64,000 bases of DNA from Candidatus Woesearchaeota archaeon. Its GTDB lineage: Archaea; Nanobdellota; Nanobdellia; Woesearchaeales; JAGVZT01. This document shows, in pieces, positions 45,974 through 60,988 of this stretch. A program made the translations under genes and the position numbers. The first letter of the stretch is position 1; each line of letters opens with the position of its first letter. The stretch is taken from assembly GCA_018263355.1 (NCBI GenBank), contig JAANXH010000043.1:443-64442 (forward strand), in the 5' to 3' direction. The notes under the pieces were generated by a model. The model saw only the letters and a list, made by a program, of their open reading frames with translations, was not told where the DNA came from and searched no databases.

Positions 45974-46172
45974 ACAGAATATGGAATGCCTATATTGTAG
46001 TGAAGAGGCAGAGAAGAGATGGGTCTCTGAATGGAACTGTGAACATCATTATAAGTCATTTTGCTGCAAGAATTGTGGTAAGAAAAATTTTGTCAGAGTA
46101 AATTTTCAGGGTTCTGGACATGATTCTTGGGGACTTGAAGATAAGATTAATTCTGACAAGAAAATCTTATAA
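45954..46172 (+). CDS. Small zinc-ribbon protein
   Basis: CxxC...CxxC plus GSGHD. Confidence 0.65.
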   Translation: MKDHLIKQNMECLYCSEEAEKRWVSEWNCEHHYKSFCCKNCGKKNFVRVNFQGSGHDSWGLEDKINSDKKIL

Positions 46173-47303
46173 GATTTGTTTTAATGTATCTACAGCTGTA
46201 TCAACATGTTCTTTTTCAATTATCAATGGAGGTAGAAACCTAACAACTGTTGAGGCAGCAGGTATTGCTAAAATTCCAAATTCCTGCAATTTCTTCAGAT
46301 AAGCAGAATGTCTCTTTCTAAGATCCAAAGCAATCATCAACCCTCTTCCTCTTGCCTCTCTTATTGTTGGACTTTCAATCTGTGATAATTGTTCTATAAA
46401 ATAATCTCCCATTTGTTTTGAATGCTCCAGCAGATTATTCTCTTCAATAAAATTAATGGTTGCAGATCCTGCTGCACATGCTAATGGATTTCCTCCAAAA
46501 GTGCATGAGTGCATTCCTTTTGATAATTTTTCCGAAACTTTTTGTGAGATTAATGTAACTCCAATTGGAACACCATTTGCAAGACTTTTTGCCATGCACA
46601 TTATATCTGGTTTAATGCCATATAGTTGGGAAGCAGTCCAGTTTCCAGTTCTAAGTCCTGTTTGTACCTCATCAAAAACCAGTAAAGCATCATTATCATC
46701 ACATAAATCCCTGGCGCATTTCAAAAACTCTTTGGTTGCAGGTCTAATTCCCGACTCTCCCTGAATTGGTTCTAATAATACTGCTGCTGTTTTTTTGTTT
46801 ACAGCCAGTTTTAGTTGCTCAATATTGTTGTAAGATATTGGTTCAAATTCTGTAAATAATGGTTTGAAAGGTTTTTGATATTTTGGACTTGAAGTTGTTG
46901 CTGAAAGTGCTCCTAAAGTCTTACCATGATATCCAAGTTTTGCTGTAATAATCTTTCTATTTTTTGAGTAAGCCCACACAAACTTTATTGCAGCTTCAAC
47001 TGACTCAGTACCTGAATTTGAAAGATATACCTTTGTTAAATTTTTGGGAGTAATCTCTATTAATTTTTGTGCAAATTTCTGCCTAGTTTTATTTTCAAAA
47101 CTGCAATGCAGGCTTGTTAGATTTTGAATCTGTGTATTTACTGCCTTATTAACTGCATTGTTTGCATGTCCAATGATATTTACACCATAATTAGTCATTA
47201 AGTCTAAATATTTTTTCCCCTGTGTGTCATATACATAAATTCCTTTCCCCCTTTCAATATCAAGACCTCTAGTCATATAAGTTGGAGCCATATTTTCATT
47301 CAT
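46167..47303 (-). CDS. lysJ: [LysW]-aminoadipate semialdehyde transaminase
   Basis: Class III PLP: NSGTES.E, YHG.T, EPIQGE.G, DEVQTG, AK.L; operon context. Confidence 0.85.
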   Translation of the reverse strand: MNENMAPTYMTRGLDIERGKGIYVYDTQGKKYLDLMTNYGVNIIGHANNAVNKAVNTQIQNLTSLHCSFENKTRQKFAQKLIEITPKNLTKVYLSNSGTESVEAAIKFVWAYSKNRKIITAKLGYHGKTLGALSATTSSPKYQKPFKPLFTEFEPISYNNIEQLKLAVNKKTAAVLLEPIQGESGIRPATKEFLKCARDLCDDNDALLVFDEVQTGLRTGNWTASQLYGIKPDIMCMAKSLANGVPIGVTLISQKVSEKLSKGMHSCTFGGNPLACAAGSATINFIEENNLLEHSKQMGDYFIEQLSQIESPTIREARGRGLMIALDLRKRHSAYLKKLQEFGILAIPAASTVVRFLPPLIIEKEHVDTAVDTLKQIL

Positions 47304-48082
47304 CTTATCACCGTCCCATTTGCATTTGTTATTGGATTTTCAATCCTACCATCTGTAATAATAACTTCTGTCGGAGCTGATTCAAATAGTTTTTTGATAG
47401 CCAAAATTTTCCTTTTCATTCTTCCTTTTACCTGCTCTAATCTTTGATCTAGTTCCTTTGCACAAATCTCTTCTACTAGGGAACTTGGATCATTTAGATC
47501 ATCTAAAAATCCTGGTGCTTCAATTAACTGAATAATTTTGTCAGCTCTAATCTCATTATGAATAACCCTTACAATATTGTCATTTTCAGAATTTATTGCA
47601 AATGCCTTTTCATCAATTATTGGAACAGTAATTACAGGAACAAAACCATTATTAAGCAGAAGTTCTAGCAATTTTTTGTTTGCTTTCCTTGGTTTTCCTG
47701 AAAAATCTCTTACAATCTTCAATTTATTGTCTTTTTTTACTCTTATGCCTCTGTTTCTTTTACCTTGAATTAGTTTTCCGTCCAGACCAGTTAATCCTAT
47801 TGCATTGATATTGTTTTGCTGGCATAACTCTACAATTCTTTTATTTCTCAGGCCAGAGTAAGCCATCATCATTACATCCAAAGCATCTTTATCTGAAAAA
47901 ACACTTGAGTAACCAGATGCAGAGGTAATTGTTTTTTTAGGCTTTCCAAGCTGCTCCCCAATCTCATCTCTAAGTGCATTTGCTCCGTGTACAATTATGA
48001 ATTTTTCATCTAACTTAGCAAGATCTTTTATTGTTCCTTCTATGTTTATTTTATCTCCTCCTCCAATTTTGACAATTATCAT
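47300..48082 (-). CDS. lysZ: [LysW]-aminoadipate kinase
   Basis: VKIGG, VHGAN, GRMKRK; operon context. Confidence 0.88.
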   Translation of the reverse strand: MIIVKIGGGDKINIEGTIKDLAKLDEKFIIVHGANALRDEIGEQLGKPKKTITSASGYSSVFSDKDALDVMMMAYSGLRNKRIVELCQQNNINAIGLTGLDGKLIQGKRNRGIRVKKDNKLKIVRDFSGKPRKANKKLLELLLNNGFVPVITVPIIDEKAFAINSENDNIVRVIHNEIRADKIIQLIEAPGFLDDLNDPSSLVEEICAKELDQRLEQVKGRMKRKILAIKKLFESAPTEVIITDGRIENPITNANGTVIR

Positions 48083-48711
48083 TTATAGCACCTCACAAGA
48101 TTATTTGGTATTTTATCAAAACTGTCATCAAGTTTGATTGAGCATAATTGCAATCCATTTTCTTTGCTCTCATACATTGTAAAATATTCTGGTCTTTCAT
48201 TAAAGTTTACTGACAAGTAAATATTGTCGTCTGTTTTGTCAAGTATGATAAAGTTCATTGCCTTTACATATTTTGTTCTCTTTCTAATTATCTTTACTGC
48301 TTTAGATATTGCTTGTTTTAGGTCTCCTTTATGAAATCGTTGGATATAGTTAAATATTTTTTCTGCACCAATTCTCCCCTTTTGTCTAATTCTTACTCCT
48401 TGTAATTCTCCGTTAAAGATAAATATTTGATTGTGGTTTTGAAATGGCATATTGTTTTCAATTACTATATCTTTATCCTCAAATGCACTTCTTGCATGTG
48501 CCAGCAAAATTTTTGTTGATCCAAATTTTTCAAAATCTTCTTCCCAGATTGGATTAATGTTTTTATAAGATCTCCAACCATTGTCTAAATAAGCACATCC
48601 CCAGCCATGACCCTGATATTCTTTGCTTTGCCTGCATTTATCTGCAAATCTAGTTAGAGCAGAAGAAATCTCAATTTCTTTTTCTGATTTTATTACTAGT
48701 AATCTGCACAT
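48079..48711 (-). CDS. Class II glutamine amidotransferase/Ntn-hydrolase (YafJ/Dug3/EgtC-like)
   Basis: N-terminal MCRL nucleophile, GWG, AHAR, N.PF, NG motifs. Confidence 0.8.
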   Translation of the reverse strand: MCRLLVIKSEKEIEISSALTRFADKCRQSKEYQGHGWGCAYLDNGWRSYKNINPIWEEDFEKFGSTKILLAHARSAFEDKDIVIENNMPFQNHNQIFIFNGELQGVRIRQKGRIGAEKIFNYIQRFHKGDLKQAISKAVKIIRKRTKYVKAMNFIILDKTDDNIYLSVNFNERPEYFTMYESKENGLQLCSIKLDDSFDKIPNNLVRCYK

Positions 48712-48718
48712 TTTAAAC

Positions 48719-49750
48719 CTATACTGGATGTAATCCTAAAAATTCTAATCCTGTTGTTTCCTCAAACCCACACATTATATTCATTGACTGAACTGCTTGT
48801 CCTGCTCCTCCTTTCATTAAATTGTCTATTGCACTCATCACAACTAATCTGTTAGAGTTAGGATCTAGTTCAAATCCTACTTCCACAAAATTAGTGCCTG
48901 CAAGAATTTTTGGCTCAGGATATCTATAAACTCCTCTTGATTTTTTTACAATTCTAACAAATGGCTCATCATTATATTCCTGTCTGTATATTCTCCAGAT
49001 ATCTTTTTTTGTAAATCCTTTTTTTAGAAAAACATGAGATGTTGCTAAAATACCTCTTACTAGTTCAACTGCTGTTCCAGAAAAATGTACTTGAGGTTTA
49101 CTATTAAAACTTAACTCCTGAATTATCTCTGCAGTATGTCTGTGTCCTGTTGGCTTAAATGACCTTATCACATTAGATCTTTCTGAATGATGTGTTGACA
49201 AGTTAGGTTTGTTTCCTGATGCTGAGCTTCCAACTTTTGCTTCTACTATCACTTGATCTTTAACAAGATTGTTCTTAAATAAGGGATATAAGCCCATAAT
49301 TGTTGCAGTTGCAAGGCAACCTGTTCCAGCAACAAGATTAGATTCCCTAATCTCTTTTCTGTGCAGTTCTGCATTCCCATACACAAATCTCTTAAGATAT
49401 TCAGGATTTGGGTGAGGATGTTTATACCATTTTTTATAATCTTCTGGATCTCTGAGTCTGAAATCCCCGCTCAAATCAATTATTTTACCAGCTTTTTTTT
49501 CCAGGTCTTTTATTTTTTCCATAGAGACTCCATGAGGAAGAGCCAAAAATAAAACATCAGTTTCTTCAAGGTCATTTATACTTGAAAATTTTAGACTTGA
49601 GCCTCTTAAATTAGGATGTACTGCTTGCACAAATTTACCTGCAAATCTTTCTGATGTGATTTGATTAGGCTGAACTTTTGGATGTGTCATTAATAACCTT
49701 ACTGCTTCTCCTCCAATATAACCTGATGCTCCAACAACACTTACTTTCAT
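48719..49750 (-). CDS. lysY: [LysW]-aminoadipyl-phosphate reductase
   Basis: GASGY.G, ALPHG, DLSGDFRL, GC.AT, DNLMKGGAGQA. Confidence 0.9.
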   Translation of the reverse strand: MKVSVVGASGYIGGEAVRLLMTHPKVQPNQITSERFAGKFVQAVHPNLRGSSLKFSSINDLEETDVLFLALPHGVSMEKIKDLEKKAGKIIDLSGDFRLRDPEDYKKWYKHPHPNPEYLKRFVYGNAELHRKEIRESNLVAGTGCLATATIMGLYPLFKNNLVKDQVIVEAKVGSSASGNKPNLSTHHSERSNVIRSFKPTGHRHTAEIIQELSFNSKPQVHFSGTAVELVRGILATSHVFLKKGFTKKDIWRIYRQEYNDEPFVRIVKKSRGVYRYPEPKILAGTNFVEVGFELDPNSNRLVVMSAIDNLMKGGAGQAVQSMNIMCGFEETTGLEFLGLHPV

Positions 49751-50589
49751 TTTTTTGCCTCCTCTACCAGATATTCAATCATTTTTTCTGGAATGTTTAC
49801 TCCGGTTGTTTTAATACTATTTCTAAATTCCATTGTGTGATTTACTTCATTTACTATTAAACCTTTATCTGTTTCAAATAGATCTAAAGCCAATATCCCC
49901 CCACCTAAGGCTTTTGCTGTTTTTAAACAGATTTCATTTATTTCATCTGTTACTGGGCAATTAGTAGCTCTGCCTCCTCTTGCAGTATTTGTTATCCAAT
50001 GCTTTGATGATCTGTATATAGCACCTATTGTTTCATCACCCACCACAAACGCCCTAATATCTCTGCCCGGTTTTTCAACAAACTCATTGATAAAAAAGAC
50101 TGAATGGTGGTATGAACCTAATACCTGCTTGTGCTCAAGAATTGTTTCTGCTGCAGATTTATTATCTATTTTTGATAAGAGTCTACCCCAAGAACCTACT
50201 GCAGGTTTTAGCACAACAGGATATCCAAATTGTTCAATAGCTTTCATTGCACTTTTTCTTGAAAAAGCAACTTTTACTTTTACTGTTGGAACATTATTTT
50301 TTTCAAGGGCCAGTGTTGTGAGAATTTTGTCTCCACATGTCCTAACTACTTCTGCTTTGTTAATTATGTTAATTGACCTGTCACACAAAATCTTTGTTAT
50401 ATGTCGTGACCTTGAAAAGTTAATACTTCTGTCAAGTAAGATGTCTGCTTCAAACTTAGGTGCATTTTCAAGTTCAAATATAAGATTACGATCATCATAT
50501 CTGACAAGTTCAAGATTTTTTTTTCTGACTGCTTGAAACAATAGTTTTTCTTCTGGTCTAACTCTAGAACAGATTATTCCTATTTTCAT
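49747..50589 (-). CDS. lysX: LysW-aminoadipate ligase
   Basis: RimK ATP-grasp: KP.VGSWGRL, WITNTARGG, EVNHTMEFRN. Confidence 0.9.
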   Translation of the reverse strand: MKIGIICSRVRPEEKLLFQAVRKKNLELVRYDDRNLIFELENAPKFEADILLDRSINFSRSRHITKILCDRSINIINKAEVVRTCGDKILTTLALEKNNVPTVKVKVAFSRKSAMKAIEQFGYPVVLKPAVGSWGRLLSKIDNKSAAETILEHKQVLGSYHHSVFFINEFVEKPGRDIRAFVVGDETIGAIYRSSKHWITNTARGGRATNCPVTDEINEICLKTAKALGGGILALDLFETDKGLIVNEVNHTMEFRNSIKTTGVNIPEKMIEYLVEEAKK

Positions 50590-51416
50590 TTTTGCACCTC
50601 TAAATAGTTAATAACATCATCAATAATTTTTTCATCTAAATGTGGAAAATATTGGCTAAACTCAGGAGTATAATCAACTTCAAGTACTTTTAACCCAGAT
50701 TTAGACTCTAATATATCCACACATACAAAATCTCCTCTGACTGCTTTTTTTGCGCTAAGTGCTAGTTTTCTTATTTTATCTGTTACTGGACATTTCTGTA
50801 TTTTTGCACCTTTGTTTATGTGAGTAATCCAATGGTCTGATTTTCTGTACACTGCATATACCTTATCCCCAATAACAAAGGCTCTAATATCACGCCCAGG
50901 TTTTTCAATATATTCCTGAATATAAAATACTGAATGATGATATGTACCAAGATTTTTTTTATGGTTTAATACTGCTTCAGCTGCTTGTCTGTCATTTACT
51001 TTTGCAAGTAGTTTTCCCCACGAACCTATTGCAGGTTTTAGCACAGCAGGATATCCCATTTTTTCTATTGCTTGTAAAGCTTTTTGCTCTGTAAATGCAA
51101 TCCTGACTTTGGGTGTTGGTATATTATTGGTTATTAGTGCTTCTGATACTAATAATTTACTTCCACAAATCTGTGCAGTTTCTCCTGAATTTATTGTACG
51201 CACACCAAAATTATTTAGTATTTTTAGTGCATACATGGCAGTTATATGGCTAATAGACCTTTCAAGCACAAGATCATAATCAAAACCATTTTTTTTAATG
51301 TCAAATAGTACTTTGCTGTCTTTGATTAAATCAAATTCCCAGCCTCTTGATTTTGCTGCTTTGATTAAGTGTTTTTCATCCTTTCTTATCCTATGGTGCA
51401 ATAATCCGATTTTCAT
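50586..51416 (-). CDS. Divergent LysX/ArgX paralog
   Basis: KP.IGSWG, PGRDIR, but WITHINKGA and EVDYTPEF. Confidence 0.8.
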   Translation of the reverse strand: MKIGLLHHRIRKDEKHLIKAAKSRGWEFDLIKDSKVLFDIKKNGFDYDLVLERSISHITAMYALKILNNFGVRTINSGETAQICGSKLLVSEALITNNIPTPKVRIAFTEQKALQAIEKMGYPAVLKPAIGSWGKLLAKVNDRQAAEAVLNHKKNLGTYHHSVFYIQEYIEKPGRDIRAFVIGDKVYAVYRKSDHWITHINKGAKIQKCPVTDKIRKLALSAKKAVRGDFVCVDILESKSGLKVLEVDYTPEFSQYFPHLDEKIIDDVINYLEVQK

Positions 51417-52423
51417 TTTATCAACTCTTGGATTTTTTCTATTACTTTATCTGTAACTTGATTTATGTTTAGATTTCCTCCTAAATCTTTTGTACTATAA
51501 CCCTTTTTAAGGTTTGATACTACTGATTTTTCAATTATAATTGCTTTGTTTTCTTCACCAAGATAATCCAGCATCATTTTTGCTGACATTATAGCTGCAA
51601 AAGGATTTGCAATATTTTTCCCGGAAATATCTGGTGCTGAACCATGGACTGGTTCAAATAATGCACCTGCTTTTCCTATGTTTGCAGATGCTGCTAATCC
51701 CAAACCACCAACAAGCATACATGCTTCGTCACTGAGTATGTCTCCAAATAGATTTGTAGTAACAATCACATCAAAACTTTCTGGTTTATTTATAAGTTGC
51801 ATTGCCATTGCATCAACAAGCATCTCTTCTGTTGTAATGTTTGGATATTCCTGTGATATTTCTTGTGCTATACTCCTAAAAAGACCGCATGTTTGCCTGA
51901 GTATGTTAGCCTTATGCACATAAGTTAATTTTTTTCTGTTTTGCTTTTTGGCCATTTCATATGCATATCTAATTATTCTTTCACATCCGTTATTGGTAAT
52001 TATTCTTTCTGTGATAGCTTTTTCACCACTTTGTTCTGTTCTTTCTACTCCAGAATAAAGACCTTCTGTGTTTTCTCTTACAATAACCAAATCCACATTC
52101 TCTCTAAAACCAGGTATTGGATAAGATTTATTGGGTCTAATATTTGCATATAGCTGCAAGTCCTGTCTTAGTTTAACAATAGGGCTGAAATAGTTTTCAA
52201 TATTTGGAGGAGTGGTTACTGCCCCAAAAAGAACTGCATCACAAGTTCTGGCTTGATCAATTGTTTTATCTGGCAGAGGAGTTTTGTGTCTTTTATAACA
52301 TTCATATCCAATCTCACCATAACTAAATTTAATATCAAGATCTAGTGCTTTCAAGACTCTAACTGCAGACTGTGTTACCTCAATTCCAATTCCATCTCCT
52401 GGCAAAACAAAAATATTATACAT
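51413..52423 (-). CDS. Homoisocitrate/isopropylmalate-family dehydrogenase
   Basis: PGDGIG.EV, VRENTEG.Y, HKANI, NLFGDILSD, EPVHGSAPDI; operon context favours homoisocitrate dehydrogenase. Confidence 0.88.
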   Translation of the reverse strand: MYNIFVLPGDGIGIEVTQSAVRVLKALDLDIKFSYGEIGYECYKRHKTPLPDKTIDQARTCDAVLFGAVTTPPNIENYFSPIVKLRQDLQLYANIRPNKSYPIPGFRENVDLVIVRENTEGLYSGVERTEQSGEKAITERIITNNGCERIIRYAYEMAKKQNRKKLTYVHKANILRQTCGLFRSIAQEISQEYPNITTEEMLVDAMAMQLINKPESFDVIVTTNLFGDILSDEACMLVGGLGLAASANIGKAGALFEPVHGSAPDISGKNIANPFAAIMSAKMMLDYLGEENKAIIIEKSVVSNLKKGYSTKDLGGNLNINQVTDKVIEKIQELIK

Positions 52424-52910
52424 TTTGCAGGTCTCCAAGATTATTCTCTCTTAAATATTGAACAATCCCTCTGTAAGATATTATTTTACTGACAAATTCA
52501 GGTAATGGTTTGGCTTTAAAAGTGGCCTTATTTAATATTATCTTACCACAGGAGAGTTGGACGTTTATTTCATGTCCTTGTTTAACTTTATTATGTAATT
52601 TTCTAGAGATTAATATTGGAAAACCTATATTAATACAATTCCTGTAAAATATTCTTGCAAAACTTTTTGCAATTACGCATTTTAAACCTGAATGTAAAAG
52701 TGCTAGTGCAGCATATTCTCTTGATGAACCGCAACCAAAATTATGGCCTGCAACTAAAATATCTCCTTGTTTTTTATTATTTGCAAATTCAGGATATGAA
52801 TCAATTAATGCATATCTCCCAAGTTCTTTATTATTGCTTCTAGGATAATAACTACATGGAATTATCTCGTCTGTATTTACATCATCTCCTATTTTCCATA
52901 CTTTTGCCAT
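52416..52910 (-). CDS. Homoaconitase/isopropylmalate isomerase small subunit
   Basis: DDVNTD.I, NFGCGSSRE, SFARIFYRN. Confidence 0.9.
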   Translation of the reverse strand: MAKVWKIGDDVNTDEIIPCSYYPRSNNKELGRYALIDSYPEFANNKKQGDILVAGHNFGCGSSREYAALALLHSGLKCVIAKSFARIFYRNCINIGFPILISRKLHNKVKQGHEINVQLSCGKIILNKATFKAKPLPEFVSKIISYRGIVQYLRENNLGDLQNV

Positions 52911-52923
52911 ATGAATTCCTTTC

Positions 52924-54165
52924 CTAGATAACCTTTCTTGGGTCTGTAATTTTTCCATTTATTGCAGTTGCTGCACAAGTTGCAGGGCTAGCCAGATAGA
53001 TCTCAGATTCAGGATTGCCCATTCTTCCCTTAAAATTGCGATTCATTGTTGTCAAAGCTCTTTCATTGTCTGCAAGTATACCTTGGTGGCGACCTACACA
53101 AGGACCACAGCCAGGGTTTCCAACTGTAACTCCTGCATCCAAGAAAATATCAATTAATCCATTAGACATTGCTTTTTTATATACTCCTACTGATGCTGGA
53201 ACAACAATTGTTTTGCAAAACCTGGCTACTTTTCTTTTCTTTAAAATATCTGCAGCAATTTTCAGATCATCATATCTTCCATTTGTACAAGTTCCTATAA
53301 AAACTTGATCAATATCTAAACCTGCAAATTCACCAATTGGTTTTACATTATCAACTCTTGAGGGGAATGCTATTTGTGGTTCAATGTTTGAAATATTGAA
53401 GTTATATGTTGACTCATACTTAGGATTATTAGACTTGATTTCTACAAACTCTGCCAGAGGATTTGCACCCAGAAAATTTGCTGTTTTTTCATCTGTTTGT
53501 ATTAGTCCTGTTTTTGCCCCTGCTTCAACTGCCATATTACTTAGAGTGAGTCTTTGGTGAATTTGCATATTTCTAATTGCATTTCCTGTAAATTCAATTG
53601 ATTTATATGTTGCACCATTTGCCCCTATTTTTCTTATTATATTCAATATTAGATCCTTTGCATAAACTCCATTCTGAAAATTACCACCAATCTCGATATT
53701 GATGGTTTCTGGTATTTTAAACCAATTTTTTCCTGTGGCCCAGCTAACACCTATGTCAGTGGATCCCATACCTGTGGAAAAGCAGCCTAGTGCTCCATAG
53801 GTACAAGTATGTGAATCACCACCAATAACTATTGAGCCTGGTTTAGCAAAACCTTTTTCAATCATTATCTGGTGACATACTCCTTTAAAAAAAATATTTT
53901 TAATACCTTGTTTTTTTGCAAATTTCATAATCTGCTTGTGTGTGTTAGATCCTTTTGAGTTTGGAGCAGGATAATAATGATCAAATACTATCACAATATT
54001 GTCTGGATTGTGCAAAGGCTTTCCAATCTCTTTCCATGCATCAATTGCAAGAGGAGTAGTTGTATCATGACTCATTATATAGTCAACATCGGTTATTACT
54101 GTCTCTCCAGCTTTTACTTCTCTTCCCAATTTTTTTGAAAATATCTCCTCAGCAAGAGTGCCCAT
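52924..54165 (-). CDS. Homoaconitase/isopropylmalate isomerase large subunit
   Basis: HD, FDH, GVCH, DSHT, GTCTNGR, GCGPC, NRNF.GR. Confidence 0.9.
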   Translation of the reverse strand: MGTLAEEIFSKKLGREVKAGETVITDVDYIMSHDTTTPLAIDAWKEIGKPLHNPDNIVIVFDHYYPAPNSKGSNTHKQIMKFAKKQGIKNIFFKGVCHQIMIEKGFAKPGSIVIGGDSHTCTYGALGCFSTGMGSTDIGVSWATGKNWFKIPETINIEIGGNFQNGVYAKDLILNIIRKIGANGATYKSIEFTGNAIRNMQIHQRLTLSNMAVEAGAKTGLIQTDEKTANFLGANPLAEFVEIKSNNPKYESTYNFNISNIEPQIAFPSRVDNVKPIGEFAGLDIDQVFIGTCTNGRYDDLKIAADILKKRKVARFCKTIVVPASVGVYKKAMSNGLIDIFLDAGVTVGNPGCGPCVGRHQGILADNERALTTMNRNFKGRMGNPESEIYLASPATCAATAINGKITDPRKVI

Positions 54166-54166
54166 T

Positions 54167-55330
54167 TTAGTTTTTTCCTCCACCATTACTATTATTCCAC
54201 TCTACAATATGTCTTAATTCTTCCTCATCAACTACTCTTCCTTTAGTTCCTATTTCTTTTACTTTCCTTAATATTGTCAATTTATCTTCCTCACTTGACT
54301 CCTCATGTCCAATCTTTGATAACATGTAGTGTACTGCTGCTCTTCCACTCATATGGTCAAGACATATTTTTTGCTCTTTGCCATACAAATCAGGAGGAAT
54401 ACTTTGATAATGAACAGGGTTCTGGATTGCTGCCTGGGAATGGACTCCAGCACAATGAGTAAAAGCATTATCCCCTATCAATGGTGTGTTTACTGGAATA
54501 GGTACACCAGAATACTGACTTACTAAGCAGTAGAGTTTATCAAGTAAACTCAAGTCCCATTTTTCTTCTCCAAAATCAAGATATAGTGTATTTAGTAATT
54601 GAGCTAGATCAACTATTCCCGCACGCTCTCCCAGGGAAAGTACTGAGGCGTCAATTATATCAACTCCTGCTCTATAAGCATCAATAGCATTTGCTAATGC
54701 AAATCCTCTATCATTGTGACAATGTACTGCAATTTTTGGATTTATCCCTTGTTTTTCAAATTCTGATTTTAGTCTCAATACATAATCATACATATTTCTG
54801 TCTGTTCCAGGTACCATATAACCCGTTGTATCTGCAATACTGATTATGTCTGCACCTGCTTTTACTGCTGCAACAGATGCTTTAACTACATTTTCAAATT
54901 CTGATCTTACTGTATCTTCTGGTGTGTATCTAATTATTACTTCTGAGTTTTTCCTCTTGGCATATGCAACAGTTTCTGATATCTGCTCGAGAACTTGATT
55001 TATGTCTTTTTTGTATACTCCATTTAATCTTTCTTCTGATACACAATAAAATATTCCAATGAACCCAACCCCTGTATCTAATGCTTCGTCAATATCTTTT
55101 TTTAATGTTCTTGAGTGTGCTGCAATTACTGAATTTAACTTTGAACTTGTCAACTCAGTTAAACCTTGTTTTATTTCTGGCCAAACAATTGGATGTCCTG
55201 CCTCAATAAAATCAATTCCAATTTTATCTAGTAAAGTGGCAATAGCAAGCATGATGTGAGTATCAAAATACACACCAGGTGTTTGCTCGCCTTCTCTTAA
55301 TGTACTATCTAAAATCTGAATCCGGCTCAT
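54167..55330 (-). CDS. Homocitrate synthase
   Basis: DSTLREGEQ, ADT.G, HCHND.G, H.AG.H; directly after lysW. Confidence 0.85.
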   Translation of the reverse strand: MSRIQILDSTLREGEQTPGVYFDTHIMLAIATLLDKIGIDFIEAGHPIVWPEIKQGLTELTSSKLNSVIAAHSRTLKKDIDEALDTGVGFIGIFYCVSEERLNGVYKKDINQVLEQISETVAYAKRKNSEVIIRYTPEDTVRSEFENVVKASVAAVKAGADIISIADTTGYMVPGTDRNMYDYVLRLKSEFEKQGINPKIAVHCHNDRGFALANAIDAYRAGVDIIDASVLSLGERAGIVDLAQLLNTLYLDFGEEKWDLSLLDKLYCLVSQYSGVPIPVNTPLIGDNAFTHCAGVHSQAAIQNPVHYQSIPPDLYGKEQKICLDHMSGRAAVHYMLSKIGHEESSEEDKLTILRKVKEIGTKGRVVDEEELRHIVEWNNSNGGGKN

Positions 55331-55488
55331 TCTCCCCAATCCTCATCCACTTCTGGTGCTAGTTCTAGCTCTATTGGATTAACTGACCTTACTTCAAGTT
55401 CTGCTCCACAGTCTTCACAATTTACTATTTCTGCTACTTCAACATCTTCTAATTCTATATTTGCTCCACATTCTGGACATTCAACCAT
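55327..55488 (-). CDS. lysW: Carrier protein LysW (53 aa)
   Basis: Not in track. MVECPECGANIELEDVEVAEIVNCEDCGAELEVRSVNPIELELAPEVDEDWGE: two CxxC motifs and the C-terminal EDWGE. Confidence 0.95.
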   Translation of the reverse strand: MVECPECGANIELEDVEVAEIVNCEDCGAELEVRSVNPIELELAPEVDEDWGE

Positions 55489-55564
55489 TTTATTTTCCTC
55501 CTATACTTTATCTGTTTTATTTTAGACAAACCAAACAATTCTCAAATCTTGTTGTGTTTGTATT

Positions 55565-55667
55565 AGAGAACTTTGAAATACGCTTCAAAAAATATATTAT
55601 GAAATAATAATATTTTATGATTTCAAAGTTCTCTCTGAGAATTTTGTTAGGTTTTTCAAAATTCTCA
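55565..55667. promoter_or_regulatory. Inverted repeats between the lys operon and the divergent regulator
   Basis: Perfect 15-bp IR (55565-79/55620-34) and 11-bp IR (55636-46/55657-67). Confidence 0.55.
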
Positions 55668-55797
55668 TTAGATTCTTCCAAATATTTGTATTAATATCAT
55701 ACAAATAATACTTGAAAAAAATAATTAGCACACATATATTAACTTATTGTTATCCCAATAACAAAATTTAAATAATATTGTTATTTTTGCCTAATTT

Positions 55798-56463
55798 ATG
55801 GTTTCCATAGCACATGTTGTTTCAGATAAACTATCAAAAAGACCATTTATAGAAGAAGCTTTATCTAGAGGACTTATCAATTATGGTGCCCTGGCAGATG
55901 AAATGATTCCTCTTGTTGAAGCTACTTTACAAAAAAAAGTAAAACACTCAGCAGTAATGATGGCTATTAGAAGACATACTGAGAAAATTAATCAACTCAA
56001 ATCAAACCAAATTGATTTTTTTAAAAACACAGATCTAAGTGTAAGATCTAATCTTTTTGAAGTAACATTTCAAAAATCTTCAGATGTACATAAAAAGATT
56101 ATACAATTATATGATATAATTAATCCAAGTCAAGGAGATATCTTAAATATTATTCAAGGAAATTATGAGATTACTATAATTTCAAATCAAGTGATCAAAA
56201 AAAAGATTATTGAAAAAGTAGGTAAGAGCAATATAATTAAAAGTTTTGATAATCTTTCTTCAGTGTCAATAAGATTTCCTATAAAACATATTAATACGCC
56301 AGGATTTATTTTTGCATGTGTTAAAGCAATATCCTGGGAACAAATAAATATTGTTGAGGTAGTATCAACAATGACTGAACTTACATTTATTTTAAATGAA
56401 AGGGATGTAATTCCTGCTTTTGAAATTCTAAAAAATCTGATCTCTGGTGGAAATGCCGTCTAA
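55798..56463 (+). CDS. ACT-like domain protein, probable amino-acid-responsive regulator
   Basis: N-terminal L..GLINY.ALA helix bundle; C-terminal TPG......L....INIVEVVST..E ACT-like pattern; divergent from the lys operon. Confidence 0.7.
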   Translation: MVSIAHVVSDKLSKRPFIEEALSRGLINYGALADEMIPLVEATLQKKVKHSAVMMAIRRHTEKINQLKSNQIDFFKNTDLSVRSNLFEVTFQKSSDVHKKIIQLYDIINPSQGDILNIIQGNYEITIISNQVIKKKIIEKVGKSNIIKSFDNLSSVSIRFPIKHINTPGFIFACVKAISWEQINIVEVVSTMTELTFILNERDVIPAFEILKNLISGGNAV

Positions 56464-56640: not shown

Positions 56641-57147
56641 TTGAAAAAGTTAATTTTATTGGGATTAATACTATTGGTTACATGCATGGTTATTGCACAG
56701 CAAGACGCAGCACAGGAACCACAAGAGCCACAAGGACCACAAGAAGTTCCTGAAATTCAACATACACAAACTCAAGAATTAGATGTTGAGGTTGTTGAAG
56801 AGGAAAAAAATACAGGTATTACATTGATGAATCAAGTTAAATCAACGATTATTGGGTTTTTTAGTTATATTGCAACAAGAGATTATATCTCTACTGCAAA
56901 GAACTTCGGAAGATTTTTATTAGGATTAAATTTATGGGTAAAAATAGCTATATCTATTGTTATACTGATTATTGCCCTGATAATATGGAATTTATATTTT
57001 AAAGATTGCAGAAGAAATAACATGAGAAAAGCTCGAAAACTACACAAGAAAGCTAAAAAATCTCATGACAAAGGAGACGAGGGCAGAGCAGATATTTTGT
57101 ACCAAAGAGCAGCAGAATATAGGGAAAAAGCCCAGGAGCAATGGTAA
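56641..57147 (+). CDS. Membrane protein, hypothetical
   Basis: Signal peptide, QEP repeats, TM helix, basic helical tail. Confidence 0.7.
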   Translation: MKKLILLGLILLVTCMVIAQQDAAQEPQEPQGPQEVPEIQHTQTQELDVEVVEEEKNTGITLMNQVKSTIIGFFSYIATRDYISTAKNFGRFLLGLNLWVKIAISIVILIIALIIWNLYFKDCRRNNMRKARKLHKKAKKSHDKGDEGRADILYQRAAEYREKAQEQW

Positions 57148-57148
57148 G

Positions 57149-57856
57149 ATGGAATGGTTTGAAGAATTAGATTTTGATGAAAATCCTTTTGATACTAATC
57201 CAAAGAGACATCCTGAAAAACTAGTAGGATTAACAGAAATATCAAGTGAACTAATGTATAGGCTTGAATCTGGAGCCATGGTTTTTCTACAGGGCAAAAA
57301 AGGTTTTGGTAAAACTTCTTTACTTTGGAATGTTATTAGAAACAAGAGATGGAGAGGTAAAATAATCTATGTTGATTGCAAATCACTTAGTGAAGACTTA
57401 AATATTGAAAAACTACTCATAAACAAACAAGGTTTAAAAGGTATACTTTTCAAAGTTAAGCCAAAAGATATGGTCTTATTGCTTGACAATGTTGGAAAAC
57501 TAAGTAAAATAAACACAGAAAGAGTAAAATACTTTTTTGACCAAGGATATTTAAGATCTGTTGTGTTTACTGGTGAAGATTTTAAGAAAGCAGATTTTTC
57601 AAAAAGTCTTAAACAGAGAATAGGAAGTAGAATCTTAGAGATAGAGCCTGTAGACAAATACCAGGCAATTGCAATTATTAGAAACAGGATTCATGATTTA
57701 AACATGATTTCAGATGATCTTATTGAAGAAGTTTTTAAGAAATCTGATAAAAATCCAAAAAAATTGCTAGAAAACTGTGAACAACTGTTTAGCAGTGTTA
57801 TTGAGAGTAATGAAGACAAGATTACAAAAAAACATCTAAAATTAATAGAGGGATAA
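57149..57856 (+). CDS. ExeA-like P-loop ATPase
   Basis: W...L.F..NPF N-terminus, GKKGFGKT, LLLD; start moved from 57065. Confidence 0.7.
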   Translation: MEWFEELDFDENPFDTNPKRHPEKLVGLTEISSELMYRLESGAMVFLQGKKGFGKTSLLWNVIRNKRWRGKIIYVDCKSLSEDLNIEKLLINKQGLKGILFKVKPKDMVLLLDNVGKLSKINTERVKYFFDQGYLRSVVFTGEDFKKADFSKSLKQRIGSRILEIEPVDKYQAIAIIRNRIHDLNMISDDLIEEVFKKSDKNPKKLLENCEQLFSSVIESNEDKITKKHLKLIEG

Positions 57857-57857
57857 A

Positions 57858-58733
57858 ATGTTATGGTATAAAGAGTGGGGATTTCACAATAATCCGTTTA
57901 GTATTAAGCCTGCAGCTTTTAATGATAATGTTGTTGGTTATGACCTAACTGAAATTTTTGACAAGATATCTCAAGGCGAGATCTTATTTTTGGAAGGAAA
58001 ATTCGGATATGGTAAAACAACGATTTTAAAGCACATTATTAGTAGGTTTGGCGGTCAAAGAGAGGTTGCATATTATAACTGCAACAGAAAAAAAGGAGAT
58101 ATTGAAGTAGAGAGTGTCTTAAAAGGAAAGTTTGGTTTTTTTGGAAAACTGTTCCTTGGAACTCCAAATAACATGATTTTTTTACTGGATGAAGTTAAGG
58201 AATTATCAGAATTTGACCAACAAGAAATGCTTAGGCTTTTTTCAAACGGTAACTTAAAGTCTGTAGTATTGTTCGGACCAAAGTTTGAATTAGTTAATGC
58301 AACTCCAGACTTAAAAGAAAAACTGGTTGATAATGTAATTGAACTAACAAAGCTAACTGAAGAGGAAGCAATAGATTTGGTTAGAGAAAGAATAGGAGAT
58401 ATTAAACTAGTATCTGATGATATTATCAAAAAGGTATTTAAACACACTAAAAAGATTCCAAGAGTGCTTCTTGAGAATCTTGAGGATGTATGCAAATACG
58501 CTGCTGAGAATAATGAAGAAGAAGTAACAGAGGATCATTTAAAAGAAGTTTTAGGTATTAAAAAGTCAAAAAAGAAAAAGGCAAAACCTAAGAAGAAAAA
58601 GAAGAAAAAATCAAAAAAGAAAAAGGAAAAAGCTCAGGAAGAAAAAGAGAATGAGAAAGAAAAACCTAAGAAACCTAAAACTCCAAATGAAATTGCTGAA
58701 GAAAAAGAGGAAGCAGAATTCTTTTATTATTAA
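57858..58733 (+). CDS. ExeA-like P-loop ATPase, tandem paralog with Lys-rich tail
   Basis: WY..WGF..NPF, GKFGYGKTT, FLLDE, PR sensor. Confidence 0.7.
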   Translation: MLWYKEWGFHNNPFSIKPAAFNDNVVGYDLTEIFDKISQGEILFLEGKFGYGKTTILKHIISRFGGQREVAYYNCNRKKGDIEVESVLKGKFGFFGKLFLGTPNNMIFLLDEVKELSEFDQQEMLRLFSNGNLKSVVLFGPKFELVNATPDLKEKLVDNVIELTKLTEEEAIDLVRERIGDIKLVSDDIIKKVFKHTKKIPRVLLENLEDVCKYAAENNEEEVTEDHLKEVLGIKKSKKKKAKPKKKKKKKSKKKKEKAQEEKENEKEKPKKPKTPNEIAEEKEEAEFFYY

Positions 58734-58855: not shown

Positions 58856-60988
58856 ATGGAAGAAAATAAACTTGTTGAAGAGAGAAAAAGAAAACTAAAA
58901 AAGTTACGAGAACGAGGAATAGAACCTTATGCTTATAATTTTGATAAAAAACATAAAGCTGCTGAAGTCCAGGATAAATTTGAGAAGTTCAAAGATAAAT
59001 CTGTAAAAGTTGCAGGTAGAATTATGTCCATGAGAGATATGGGAAAGGTTGTTTTTATGGATATTTATGATTCAACTGCAAATATTCAACTATATTTTAG
59101 ACAAGAAAATCTTGGTAAAGACAAACTTGAGATTATCTCTTTGCTAGATATAGGAGATATAATTGGGTGTGAAGGCACTGTTTTTAAAACAAGAACAAAA
59201 GAGATAACTGTTAAAGTAAAAAAGTTTAAGCTTTTAACAAAATCATTAAAGCCTTTGCCTGAAAAATGGCACGGTCTCAAAGACAAGGAGCAAAAGTACA
59301 GACAAAGGTATGTCCATCTAATTATGGAGCCTGAGGAGAAAAAGACATTTCTAATTAGAGAGCAAATTATTCAAGGTATTAGAGAATATTTGACCAAAAG
59401 AGAATACGTTGAGGTGCAAACCCCTATTTTACAGCCACTTTATGGCGGAGCTTCTGCAAGGCCTTTCAAAGCTAATCTTCATGCACTGAATATGCCAGTT
59501 TATATGCGTATTTCAAATGAGATGTACTTGAAAAGACTTATTGTTGCGGGATTTGATAGGGTTTTTGAATTTTCAATTGATTTTAGAAATGAAGGCATTG
59601 ATAAAAATCACAATCCTGAGTTTTTATTGTTTGAAGCAATGACTGCTTACACAGATTACTTTGATGGTATGAAGCTAATTGAAAATATCACTGAGTATGT
59701 TGTTAAAAAAGTGAAAGGAACAACTAAAGTAAAATACCAAGGAAAAGAAATTGATTTTAAAGCTCCTTGGGATAGGATATCTGTAAGAGACTCGATTATT
59801 AAATATGCAGATATTGATATTGAGAAAACTGATGATGAAGAGATGAAAAAGATCCTTGCTAAACACAATATTAAACTCAAAGGGGAATATACTAGAGGAA
59901 ATGCTATTCTTACACTTGTTGAAGAGTTTTGTGAAGAGCATTTTGTACAACCAACTATTTTGTATGATTATCCAAGAGAAACAAGTCCTCTAGCAAAGCC
60001 AAAAAGGGATGATCCAAGGTATACTGAGAGATTTGAACAATTTGTTAACTGTTTTGAATTAGGTAATAATTATACTGAGGTTACCAATGCACAGATTTTA
60101 AGGGAGAACTGGGAAAAAGAAGAGGAGGCATTAAGCAAAGGAGATTATGAAGCTATGAGAATGGATTATGATTACCTGAATGCAATTGAGGTTGGAATGC
60201 CCCCTGTATGTGGGATTGCTATAGGAATTGACAGATTAATTATGATTCTTTCAGATAAGGCTTCAATAAGAGATGTTATCTTGTTTCCTTTTATGAAACC
60301 CAAATTTAGGAAAAAAGAACCACAGGTTAAAATTGATGAATTGCCATCAGAAAAAGTTATTGTATCAAAAGAAGCAAAAAAGCTTGGTCTTAAAACATCA
60401 TATGCAATTATTAAGGATGTTTCAATTGAAAAGTCTTCTGCTAAACTAAAAAAGATGAAAAAAGACATAAGTGCAAATCCAAATGAAAAAAGAATAAAGT
60501 GCATGCAAGATGCCTACAAATCTTTTGGGATTGATCCAACAAAAAGATTGCCAAGTTCAGTTGCACTAATCAAAAGAGTAGAAGAGGGTAAAGGGATTTA
60601 TAATGTCAATACATTAGTAGATGCGTACAATATTTCTTCTATTAGAGAAAGTTTGCCTATGGCTTGTTATGATCTTAGTAAAGTAGATTTTCCGATTAAA
60701 TTAAGAAAAGCAAAAGAAGGTGAAGAAATCACTTTGATTGGAGGAAAAATAAAATCTATTAACAAAGGTGAAATTGTGTATTCAGATAATTCCAGAGTCA
60801 TATGTTTAGATTTTAATTACAGAGATGCTGATTTTACAAAAGTAACAAGCAAAACAAAAAATGTTATAGTTTTTGTTGATGGATGCAAAGGTATTTCTAA
60901 CATGGAATTACTTAAAGCACTAGACAATAGTTGCGAACTTATTACTCAGCTTTGTGGTGGAGAAATCATTGAAAAAAGAATTGCTTAA
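58856..60988 (+). CDS. lysS: Class II lysyl-tRNA synthetase with C-terminal B3/4 domain
   Basis: OB fold, YRQRY, GGASARPF, FRNEG...HNPEF, ERFE, GIGIDRL; then Y..FGIDP.K..PS..AL, N.LVD.YN, DFNYRD. Confidence 0.92.
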   Translation: MEENKLVEERKRKLKKLRERGIEPYAYNFDKKHKAAEVQDKFEKFKDKSVKVAGRIMSMRDMGKVVFMDIYDSTANIQLYFRQENLGKDKLEIISLLDIGDIIGCEGTVFKTRTKEITVKVKKFKLLTKSLKPLPEKWHGLKDKEQKYRQRYVHLIMEPEEKKTFLIREQIIQGIREYLTKREYVEVQTPILQPLYGGASARPFKANLHALNMPVYMRISNEMYLKRLIVAGFDRVFEFSIDFRNEGIDKNHNPEFLLFEAMTAYTDYFDGMKLIENITEYVVKKVKGTTKVKYQGKEIDFKAPWDRISVRDSIIKYADIDIEKTDDEEMKKILAKHNIKLKGEYTRGNAILTLVEEFCEEHFVQPTILYDYPRETSPLAKPKRDDPRYTERFEQFVNCFELGNNYTEVTNAQILRENWEKEEEALSKGDYEAMRMDYDYLNAIEVGMPPVCGIAIGIDRLIMILSDKASIRDVILFPFMKPKFRKKEPQVKIDELPSEKVIVSKEAKKLGLKTSYAIIKDVSIEKSSAKLKKMKKDISANPNEKRIKCMQDAYKSFGIDPTKRLPSSVALIKRVEEGKGIYNVNTLVDAYNISSIRESLPMACYDLSKVDFPIKLRKAKEGEEITLIGGKIKSINKGEIVYSDNSRVICLDFNYRDADFTKVTSKTKNVIVFVDGCKGISNMELLKALDNSCELITQLCGGEIIEKRIA

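Follow-up and report, generated by a model that had tools for sequence, protein, structure and literature searches.

Amino-acid biosynthesis is generally said to be missing from archaea of the DPANN group, and the locus analyzed here raises the question of whether a member of this group can make its own lysine. The locus lies in a Woesearchaeales genome (hereafter G000), in a window of 64,000 nucleotides (nt) corresponding to positions 443-64442 of contig G000:C38, within a contig of 76 kb. On the minus strand of this window, between positions 46167 and 55488, a group of genes is found that probably specifies a working alpha-aminoadipate pathway to lysine, carried out on the amino-group carrier protein LysW, encoded in one operon and inherited within a Woesearchaeal clade. 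This reading joins direct observations of gene content, gene order, taxonomy, distribution and tree topology with predicted enzymatic steps, a predicted replacement of the hydrolase LysK and a predicted mode of regulation.

The gene families were assigned by comparison with NCBIfam and Pfam models, using their curated cut-offs. Eleven open reading frames were recognized, encoding LysW, homocitrate synthase (hcs), both homoaconitase subunits (hacA, hacB), a dehydrogenase, two LysX ligases, LysY, a cysteine N-terminal nucleophile (Cys-Ntn) hydrolase, LysZ and LysJ (Table 1). Adjacent reading frames share between 4 and 35 nt, with the exception of lysY and the Ntn gene, which are separated by a gap of 7 nt; because neighbouring genes either overlap or sit 7 nt apart, we treat them as one operon. 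All genes named in the initial annotation of this stretch were recovered, most of them above the curated cut-offs, the exceptions being homocitrate synthase and lysX A, while the eleventh gene, the one encoding the Ntn hydrolase between lysY and lysZ, was absent from its list. The products of hacA, hacB and the dehydrogenase gene, the last of a homoisocitrate/isopropylmalate type, all scored above subfamily cut-offs, and the matches of LysY and LysJ reach the level of the ArgC and ArgD families only. The tail of LysW reads DEDWGE and thus ends in Glu. Scans of the window for tRNA genes and Rfam families returned no match.

Table 1. Coordinates of the lysine operon and its neighbours in the 64,000-nt window (aa, amino acids)
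Feature	Coordinates	Strand	Supporting match
lysW, amino-group carrier protein, 53 aa, zinc ribbon and acidic tail	55327..55488	-	TIGR01206 82.1 bits (cut-off 53.2); Pfam Zn_ribbon_LysW
Homocitrate synthase-like enzyme, 390 aa, 'type A'	54167..55339	-	TIGR02146 338.8 bits (below cut-off 413.6); Pfam HMGL-like, HCS_D2
hacA, homoaconitase large subunit, 420 aa	52924..54186	-	NF001614 575 bits (cut-off 385); TIGR01343 554 bits, above cut-off
hacB, homoaconitase small subunit, 180 aa	52416..52958	-	TIGR02087 179.7 bits (cut-off 109)
Homoisocitrate dehydrogenase-type enzyme, 341 aa	51413..52438	-	TIGR02088 425 bits (cut-off 410); AksF2 model 432 bits, below cut-off 540
lysX paralogue A, divergent ATP-grasp ligase, 276 aa	50586..51416	-	TIGR02144 274.1 bits, just below cut-off 275.6
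lysX paralogue B, 280 aa	49747..50589	-	TIGR02144 335 bits (cut-off 275.6)
lysY, [LysW]-aminoadipyl-phosphate reductase, ArgC family, 343 aa	48719..49750	-	TIGR01850 402.6 bits (cut-off 233.6)
Cys-Ntn hydrolase (class II amidotransferase fold), 210 aa, starts Met-Cys; candidate [LysW]-lysine hydrolase	48079..48711	-	EgtC fold match
lysZ, [LysW]-aminoadipate kinase, 260 aa	47300..48082	-	NF010659 243.3 bits (cut-off 223)
lysJ, [LysW]-aminoadipate semialdehyde aminotransferase, 378 aa	46167..47303	-	TIGR00707 431 bits (cut-off 410); LysJ_Th_th 392 bits, below cut-off
Divergent promoter region, 309 nt, between lysW and the ACT-protein gene	55489..55797	.	read directly
Tandem-ACT protein, 221 aa, candidate amino-acid-sensing regulator	55798..56463	+	weak DUF7523 match; AlphaFold model, mean predicted local distance difference test (pLDDT) score 83
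lysS, class II, 710 aa, C-terminal B3/4 domain	58856..60988	+	Pfam PF03483

In the route that we propose, homocitrate synthase, homoaconitase and homoisocitrate dehydrogenase would convert 2-oxoglutarate and acetyl-CoA into 2-oxoadipate, and one of the two general class I aminotransferases of G000 would turn this into aminoadipate. LysX would join aminoadipate to the C-terminal Glu of LysW, after which LysZ, LysY and LysJ would yield LysW-bound lysine. The gamma-glutamyl-lysine bond would then be cleaved by the Cys-Ntn hydrolase, which resembles EgtC and would act in place of the missing M20-family enzyme LysK, and expression of the operon is probably controlled by the divergently encoded tandem-ACT protein in response to an amino acid that it senses. 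Of the two class I aminotransferases, one is similar to aspartate and the other to alanine aminotransferases, and either could make aminoadipate. The supply of precursors is plausible, since G000 encodes a glutamate dehydrogenase as well as the alpha subunit of a 2-oxoacid:ferredoxin oxidoreductase, which could provide acetyl-CoA. The diaminopimelate pathway was also considered as a source of lysine and rejected; the sole LysA-family match in G000 scored 85 bits (cut-off 298) and its gene adjoins that of deoxyhypusine synthase.

This arrangement shares with the LysW pathways of Thermus thermophilus, Sulfolobus and Thermococcus a LysW ending in Glu and clustered genes for LysX, LysZ, LysY and LysJ, and the genes for the upstream enzymes (homocitrate synthase, homoaconitase and homoisocitrate dehydrogenase) are likewise clustered in G000. 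It differs from them in having the EgtC-like Cys-Ntn gene inside the operon instead of LysK, in a second LysX, judged from structure-match scores to be no ArgX orthologue, and in its host, a DPANN archaeon with a genome of 1.17 Mb. The near-complete LysW pathway proposed at the outset therefore stands as a nearly complete route, but the unusual autonomy that it was thought to confer is limited: it extends to lysine at most and hinges on two putative steps, the aminoadipate aminotransferase and the release of lysine. LysK is absent and no ornithine carbamoyltransferase was found in a family search of G000, which returned a PyrB-PyrI fusion only.

The release of lysine is a step at which G000 departs from the known pathways. 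For LysK, the [LysW]-lysine hydrolase of the M20 family, no match above the cut-off of model TIGR01902 (163 bits) was obtained in G000, where the best matches were two M20 peptidases, which scored 71.4 and 49 bits when the whole genome was searched and 71.6 and 62.0 bits when scanned singly. One of the two M20 genes adjoins serS, and its presence is independent of that of the operon, since orthologues occur in relatives that lack the operon (G003, G004, G005 and others) and none was found in the operon-bearing genome G035. The other (G000:C37:868-3336, locus L009) adjoins a gene for an enolase-family protein similar to L-Ala-D/L-Glu epimerases, a pairing that suggests the use of bacterial murein peptides. 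Further, the LysK model gave no match at all in the closed Woesearchaeal genome GW2011_AR15 (hereafter AR15; CP010425.1, one contig, G396) or in three other operon-bearing Woesearchaeal genomes, and a match of 25 bits only in the cultured Rosettibacter primus.

The position of the Ntn gene is constant. A search of the species-genome collection with the Ntn family returned at least 539 stretches with relatives, and in the best 80 of these the Ntn gene was located between lysY and lysZ without exception (80/80), in a cluster with the order lysW-(hcs)-lysX-lysY-Ntn-lysZ-lysJ. An M20 gene was found within 10 kb in one of these 80 loci, and no further conserved neighbour emerged from them. Likewise, five of the six lysW-bearing relatives of G000 possess the Ntn gene.

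Class II amidotransferases employ a Cys nucleophile, an Asn-Gly oxyanion motif and an Arg that contacts the glutamyl carboxylate. In the AlphaFold model of the Ntn protein (pLDDT 88.8) and in an alignment of 14 sequences, the features of the class II (Ntn) amidotransferase fold were all found, namely an N-terminal Cys, the Asn-Gly pair, the Arg and the alpha-beta-beta-alpha fold; Cys2, Arg74 and Asn100 do not vary, and Gly101 hardly does. The best match among solved folds was EgtC (E 1e-10, template modelling score 0.72), and the PurF and GlmS folds also matched. At the sequence level, when the profile of the Ntn family was compared with the N-terminal domains of AsnB and GlmS from G000, nothing useful was aligned beyond the NGE motif, which alone was aligned with AsnB; searching solved structures by sequence likewise produced no significant match. 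In PurF and GlmS an Asp binds the free amino group of the glutamyl substrate, and in the Ntn family an invariant Gly may stand in its place. Among the NCBIfam and Pfam models the Ntn protein gave weak matches only, to class II amidotransferases and to EgtC; it scored 28.8 bits against the EgtC model TIGR03442, far below its cut-off of 218.7 and hence outside that family, so that, despite the common fold, we do not regard it as an EgtC orthologue. Both EgtC (PDB 4zfj, 4zfk, 4zfl) and the Ntn protein are stand-alone hydrolases of the class II amidotransferase fold with an N-terminal Cys; they differ in sequence (about 16% identity) and in genomic context, the Ntn gene invariably lying in a lysW operon.

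EgtC, a gamma-glutamyl amidohydrolase of the ergothioneine pathway, cleaves a gamma-glutamyl amide bond, and lysine is tied to LysW by a bond of the same type. Because of this shared bond type and the EgtC fold, the Ntn protein most likely takes the place of LysK and releases lysine from LysW, a proposal by analogy with EgtC for which no paper describing such a replacement was found in the searchable literature. If confirmed, it would close an apparent gap in lysine synthesis for many uncultured lineages. The carrier itself also varies among these operons: of 66 Ntn-type operons, 16 encode a LysW that ends in Gln instead of Glu (5 of the 15 from Woesearchaeales and 11 of the 51 from bacteria), and the C-terminal Glu of LysW is required for ligation.

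With regard to the host, G000 is, as the initial annotation had supposed, a DPANN archaeon, and it belongs to the order Woesearchaeales. AR15, listed as Candidatus Woesearchaeota (PMC8407392), belongs to the same GTDB order: the Ntn match in its record CP010425.1 has exactly the coordinates of the match in G396, which is labelled as being of the same order. The named relatives of the RtcB protein encoded on the operon contig (69-75% identical) are mostly labelled 'Candidatus Woesearchaeota archaeon'. The G000 bin comprises 1,167,524 bp in 60 contigs, with an estimated completeness of 99.96% and a contamination of 0.63%, a small genome in an order whose sample holds more than 130 family codes and genomes listed at 0.6-2.1 Mb.

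Strong Ntn matches were used as a marker of the Ntn-type LysW operon. The marker was detected in 15 of the 401 genomes sampled from the order (about 4%) and in 14 of the 401 sampled from the phylum, all 14 belonging to Woesearchaeales, and the positive genomes of the two samples fall into nine GTDB family codes. This rarity agrees with the premise that DPANN genomes usually lack such biosynthesis. In the family of G000 itself, lysW was present in four and the Ntn gene in three of the seven other genomes, each count including one positive from the unpublished genome G006. A nearly complete aminoadipate route is thus found in about 4% of the sampled Woesearchaeales, including a closed genome, that of AR15, that has been public since 2015. 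No mention of the AR15 operon was found in the searchable literature, and a DPANN-wide survey considers the aspartate route to lysine only (PMC8407392).

Among the best 80 related loci, 69 are bacterial and come from many phyla. The Caldithrix abyssi locus Cabys_3146-3153 (PMC5317091) and those of Melioribacter roseus and Rosettibacter primus display the same order, lysW-hcs-lysX-lysY-Ntn-lysZ-lysJ, with 53-66% protein identity to G000. In contrast to G000, the bacterial loci that were fetched have neither hacA, hacB and the dehydrogenase gene within the cluster nor a divergent ACT-protein gene. The Caldithrix genome paper gives 'LysWXZYJ and Hcs' and names no LysK, Ntn or other release enzyme (PMC5317091). 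The AR15 operon has the same gene order as that of G000, including the divergent ACT-protein gene, and differs from it in having one lysX and a homocitrate synthase of another type (39% identical to that of G000).

The history of the operon was analyzed with a concatenated tree of LysX, LysY, Ntn, LysZ and LysJ, computed with FastTree and IQ-TREE from 17 Woesearchaeal operons and bacterial ones. Here, G000 joined the same-genus genome G001 and then G002, which is of the same family as G000, and all three fell within a clade of ten operons that is wholly Woesearchaeal (support 98-100). This clade also contains family f67 (AR15 and its relatives) and f94, and its members group by GTDB family. 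The seven other Woesearchaeal operons were placed among bacterial clades, and a single clade of all 17 was rejected, at a cost of 332 log-likelihood units (approximately unbiased test, p = 3e-7). Since such a clade is rejected, the operon type, judging from these trees, has crossed the boundary between archaea and bacteria more than once, which would amount to repeated exchange of a whole biosynthetic operon between these archaea and bacteria.

How the copy in G000 came to be there can be explained in several ways. Mis-binning or chimerism of the contig, with another organism as the true owner of the operon, was raised as a concern at the outset; it might be fed by the fact that G000 is a metagenome bin in 60 contigs and that four related bins bear the NCBI label 'uncultured Methanosarcinales archaeon', but we regard it as so improbable that it can practically be set aside. 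The operon recurs, along with its divergent ACT-protein gene, on the closed chromosome of AR15 (Ntn match at 704641-705276), the flanking RtcB is Woesearchaeal, and the contamination of the bin is low. In G001, on a contig of 81 kb, the operon shows the same junctions, lying between the same flanking genes at 65-84% identity. One flank consists of cutA and the genes for RtcB, archease, a C39-like peptidase, D-aminoacyl-tRNA deacylase (DTD) and a subtilase, and the opposite flank of the DUF7523 gene followed by two AAA genes. Moreover, the composition of the operon is ordinary for the genome, with a guanine-plus-cytosine content of 33.8% against 32.4% and a tetranucleotide distance within the genome's own range, 23% of equal-length genome windows deviating more. 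The same observations bear on a recent uptake of the whole operon by G000 from a bacterium, for which one could cite the 53-66% identity of its proteins to those of Ignavibacteriota, Bacteroidota and Desulfobacterota operons of the same gene order, the rarity of the operon in the order, the better NCBIfam scores of LysW, LysZ and LysJ on general or Thermus-type models than on archaeal or Sulfolobales ones, and a homocitrate synthase of a type otherwise mainly bacterial. Such an event is nonetheless very unlikely, given the shared position and flanks in G001, a gene order common to G002, the ordinary composition and, for the core from lysX to lysJ, whose recent uptake it contradicts, the placement in a clade of ten with support of 99-100 that groups by family. 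Because of this synteny, tree position and composition, the G000 copy was inherited within the Woesearchaeal clade rather than recently imported. The suggestion of an acquired operon therefore fits the operon type over deep time and does not fit a recent event in G000. An alternative set further back in time, in which the operon type is ancient, either among Woesearchaeales or among archaea generally, disappeared from most lineages and passed from these archaea to bacteria, appears rather unlikely to us. In a tree of LysY and LysZ rooted on canonical ArgC and ArgB, the Woesearchaeal sequences branched first with all bacterial ones nested among them, a Desulfobacterota clade is flanked by Woesearchaeal sequences, and positive genomes occur in 9 GTDB families; however, with an outgroup branch of about 4 substitutions per site and long branches on the rows that diverge first, long-branch attraction is likely, the relatives of the operon are mostly bacterial among the best 80 loci and the affinities to hidden Markov models are bacterial. 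A tree of LysZ only, rooted on ArgB, was poorly resolved. Because of the long outgroup branch and the long basal rows we leave the direction of transfer open, and it is only tentatively, as an idea with rather low odds, that we put forward the Ntn-type LysW operon as an inter-domain mobile module, with Woesearchaeales as both donors and recipients (the Desulfobacterota version, for example, being Woesearchaeal-derived) and a minority of them being lysine prototrophs that use the cysteine hydrolase.

The product of the pathway could also be a different one. The operon contains two LysX paralogues, and the second could load glutamate, as ArgX of Sulfolobus does, so that the LysW module would yield ornithine or some other amine, either in place of lysine or in addition to it; in line with this, the Thermus enzymes LysZ, LysY, LysJ and LysK accept glutamate-derived substrates (PMC12998189), and several related loci have no homocitrate synthase and homoaconitase genes nearby. 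LysX B is the orthologue of the single LysX of most related loci, with 53-63% identity to it; a few related loci have two lysX-like genes, and orthologues of lysX A are present in G001, G002, L025, G517 and G583. When compared with solved structures, LysX A matched the LysX structures 3vpd (221 bits) and 1uc8 (195 bits) better than chain 3vpb (145 bits), which we take to be ArgX, and LysX B was likewise closer to the LysX structures. This similarity, the presence of homocitrate synthase, homoaconitase and homoisocitrate dehydrogenase genes inside the G000 operon, and the finding of PyrB-PyrI aspartate carbamoyltransferase as the sole carbamoyltransferase, with no evident route from ornithine to arginine, make an ornithine or amine product improbable. 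Several points do weigh against a complete lysine pathway inherited in this way. LysX A is best described as a LysX-type ligase of uncertain substrate and role; homocitrate synthase scored below every curated equivalog cut-off, and because of this its substrate is assigned from context; neither class I aminotransferase has been assigned to 2-oxoadipate; the two M20 peptidases of G000 could in principle release lysine; the rest of its metabolism was sampled by a few family searches; and the long branches of the LysY and LysZ tree affect the account of its descent.

Within the lysine operon of G000, homocitrate synthase is the sole gene that looks replaced. Its product shares 59-66% identity with its counterparts from bacterial operons and from two Woesearchaeal loci, L031 and L086, and 58% with that of G328, but no more than 35-43% with the enzymes of G001, G002, G007 and AR15. 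In line with these values, the homocitrate synthase tree displayed two deeply separated types, in which G000 was found with bacteria and three other Woesearchaeal sequences, apart from its own family. Because the enzyme falls in a mainly bacterial type and not with those of its family, the gene looks as if it had been replaced in place by one of the other type.

The congener G001 presents a different picture. Its operon (L018, G001:C1) keeps lysW-hcs-lysX-lysX-lysY-Ntn-lysZ-lysJ, and hacA, hacB and the dehydrogenase gene are missing from the operon locus. No hacA was found anywhere in G001 with a hacA query (the genome is 99% complete); G001 has thus lost homoaconitase. Its homocitrate synthase is very divergent, on a very long branch, and the last residue of its LysW is Gln. 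The route of G001 may be decaying, or aminoadipate from outside may feed it. Dependence on a partner accordingly varies even within a genus, G000 having the whole route and its congener none of the homoaconitase that was searched for.

The protein encoded divergently from lysW was described in the initial annotation as an ACT-like regulator, of which the tandem ACT fold and the divergent position are borne out and the regulatory role is that of a candidate. In its model, the N-terminal 70 residues form four helices and the C-terminal part two ACT domains. With Foldseek, the ACT part matched the aspartokinase regulatory subunits 3ab4, 2re1 and 2zho (E about 3e-8 over about 150 residues), and such subunits bind lysine or threonine. 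No match to a helix-turn-helix family was detected in the protein. The gene occupies the same position in nine other Woesearchaeal loci and is found in none of the bacterial loci.

In the divergent promoter region, about 60 nt beside the ACT-protein gene (about 55735-55790) are conserved with G001 and contain an inverted repeat, TTGTTAT / ATAACAA. Upstream of lysW, at window positions 55565-55634, a perfect 15-nt inverted repeat was also noted (AGAGAACTTTGAAAT / ATTTCAAAGTTCTCT, with arms 40 nt apart). We do not claim it as an operator, because it is not conserved in G001.

On the far side of the ACT-protein gene, two tandem paralogous AAA_14 ATPase genes with about 36% mutual identity occupy window positions 57065-58733 on the plus strand, and both are kept beside the ACT-protein gene in G001 and G006. 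They are followed by lysS, whose proximity had been pointed out in the initial annotation and which is also located next to or near the lysine operon in G001, G002 and L080. The B3/4 domain at the end of the G000 protein is one known from the beta subunit of phenylalanyl-tRNA synthetase; no such extension was found after lysS of G002 and L080, and no second copy of it was found in G000.

Two further observations concern the genomes themselves. On contig G000:C31 (L105), genes for an archaeal-type phosphoenolpyruvate carboxylase, an alanine aminotransferase-like enzyme and a bacterial-type aspartyl-tRNA synthetase adjoin one another, a trio that represents central metabolism beyond what is expected of a typical DPANN genome. 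The four bins named 'uncultured Methanosarcinales archaeon' (L024, L025, L080 and L086; CAYQPU01, CAZEKF01, CAYRXW01 and CAZJZJ01) are third-party assemblies that are Woesearchaeales by GTDB order and by their genes, and their NCBI organism label appears to be wrong.

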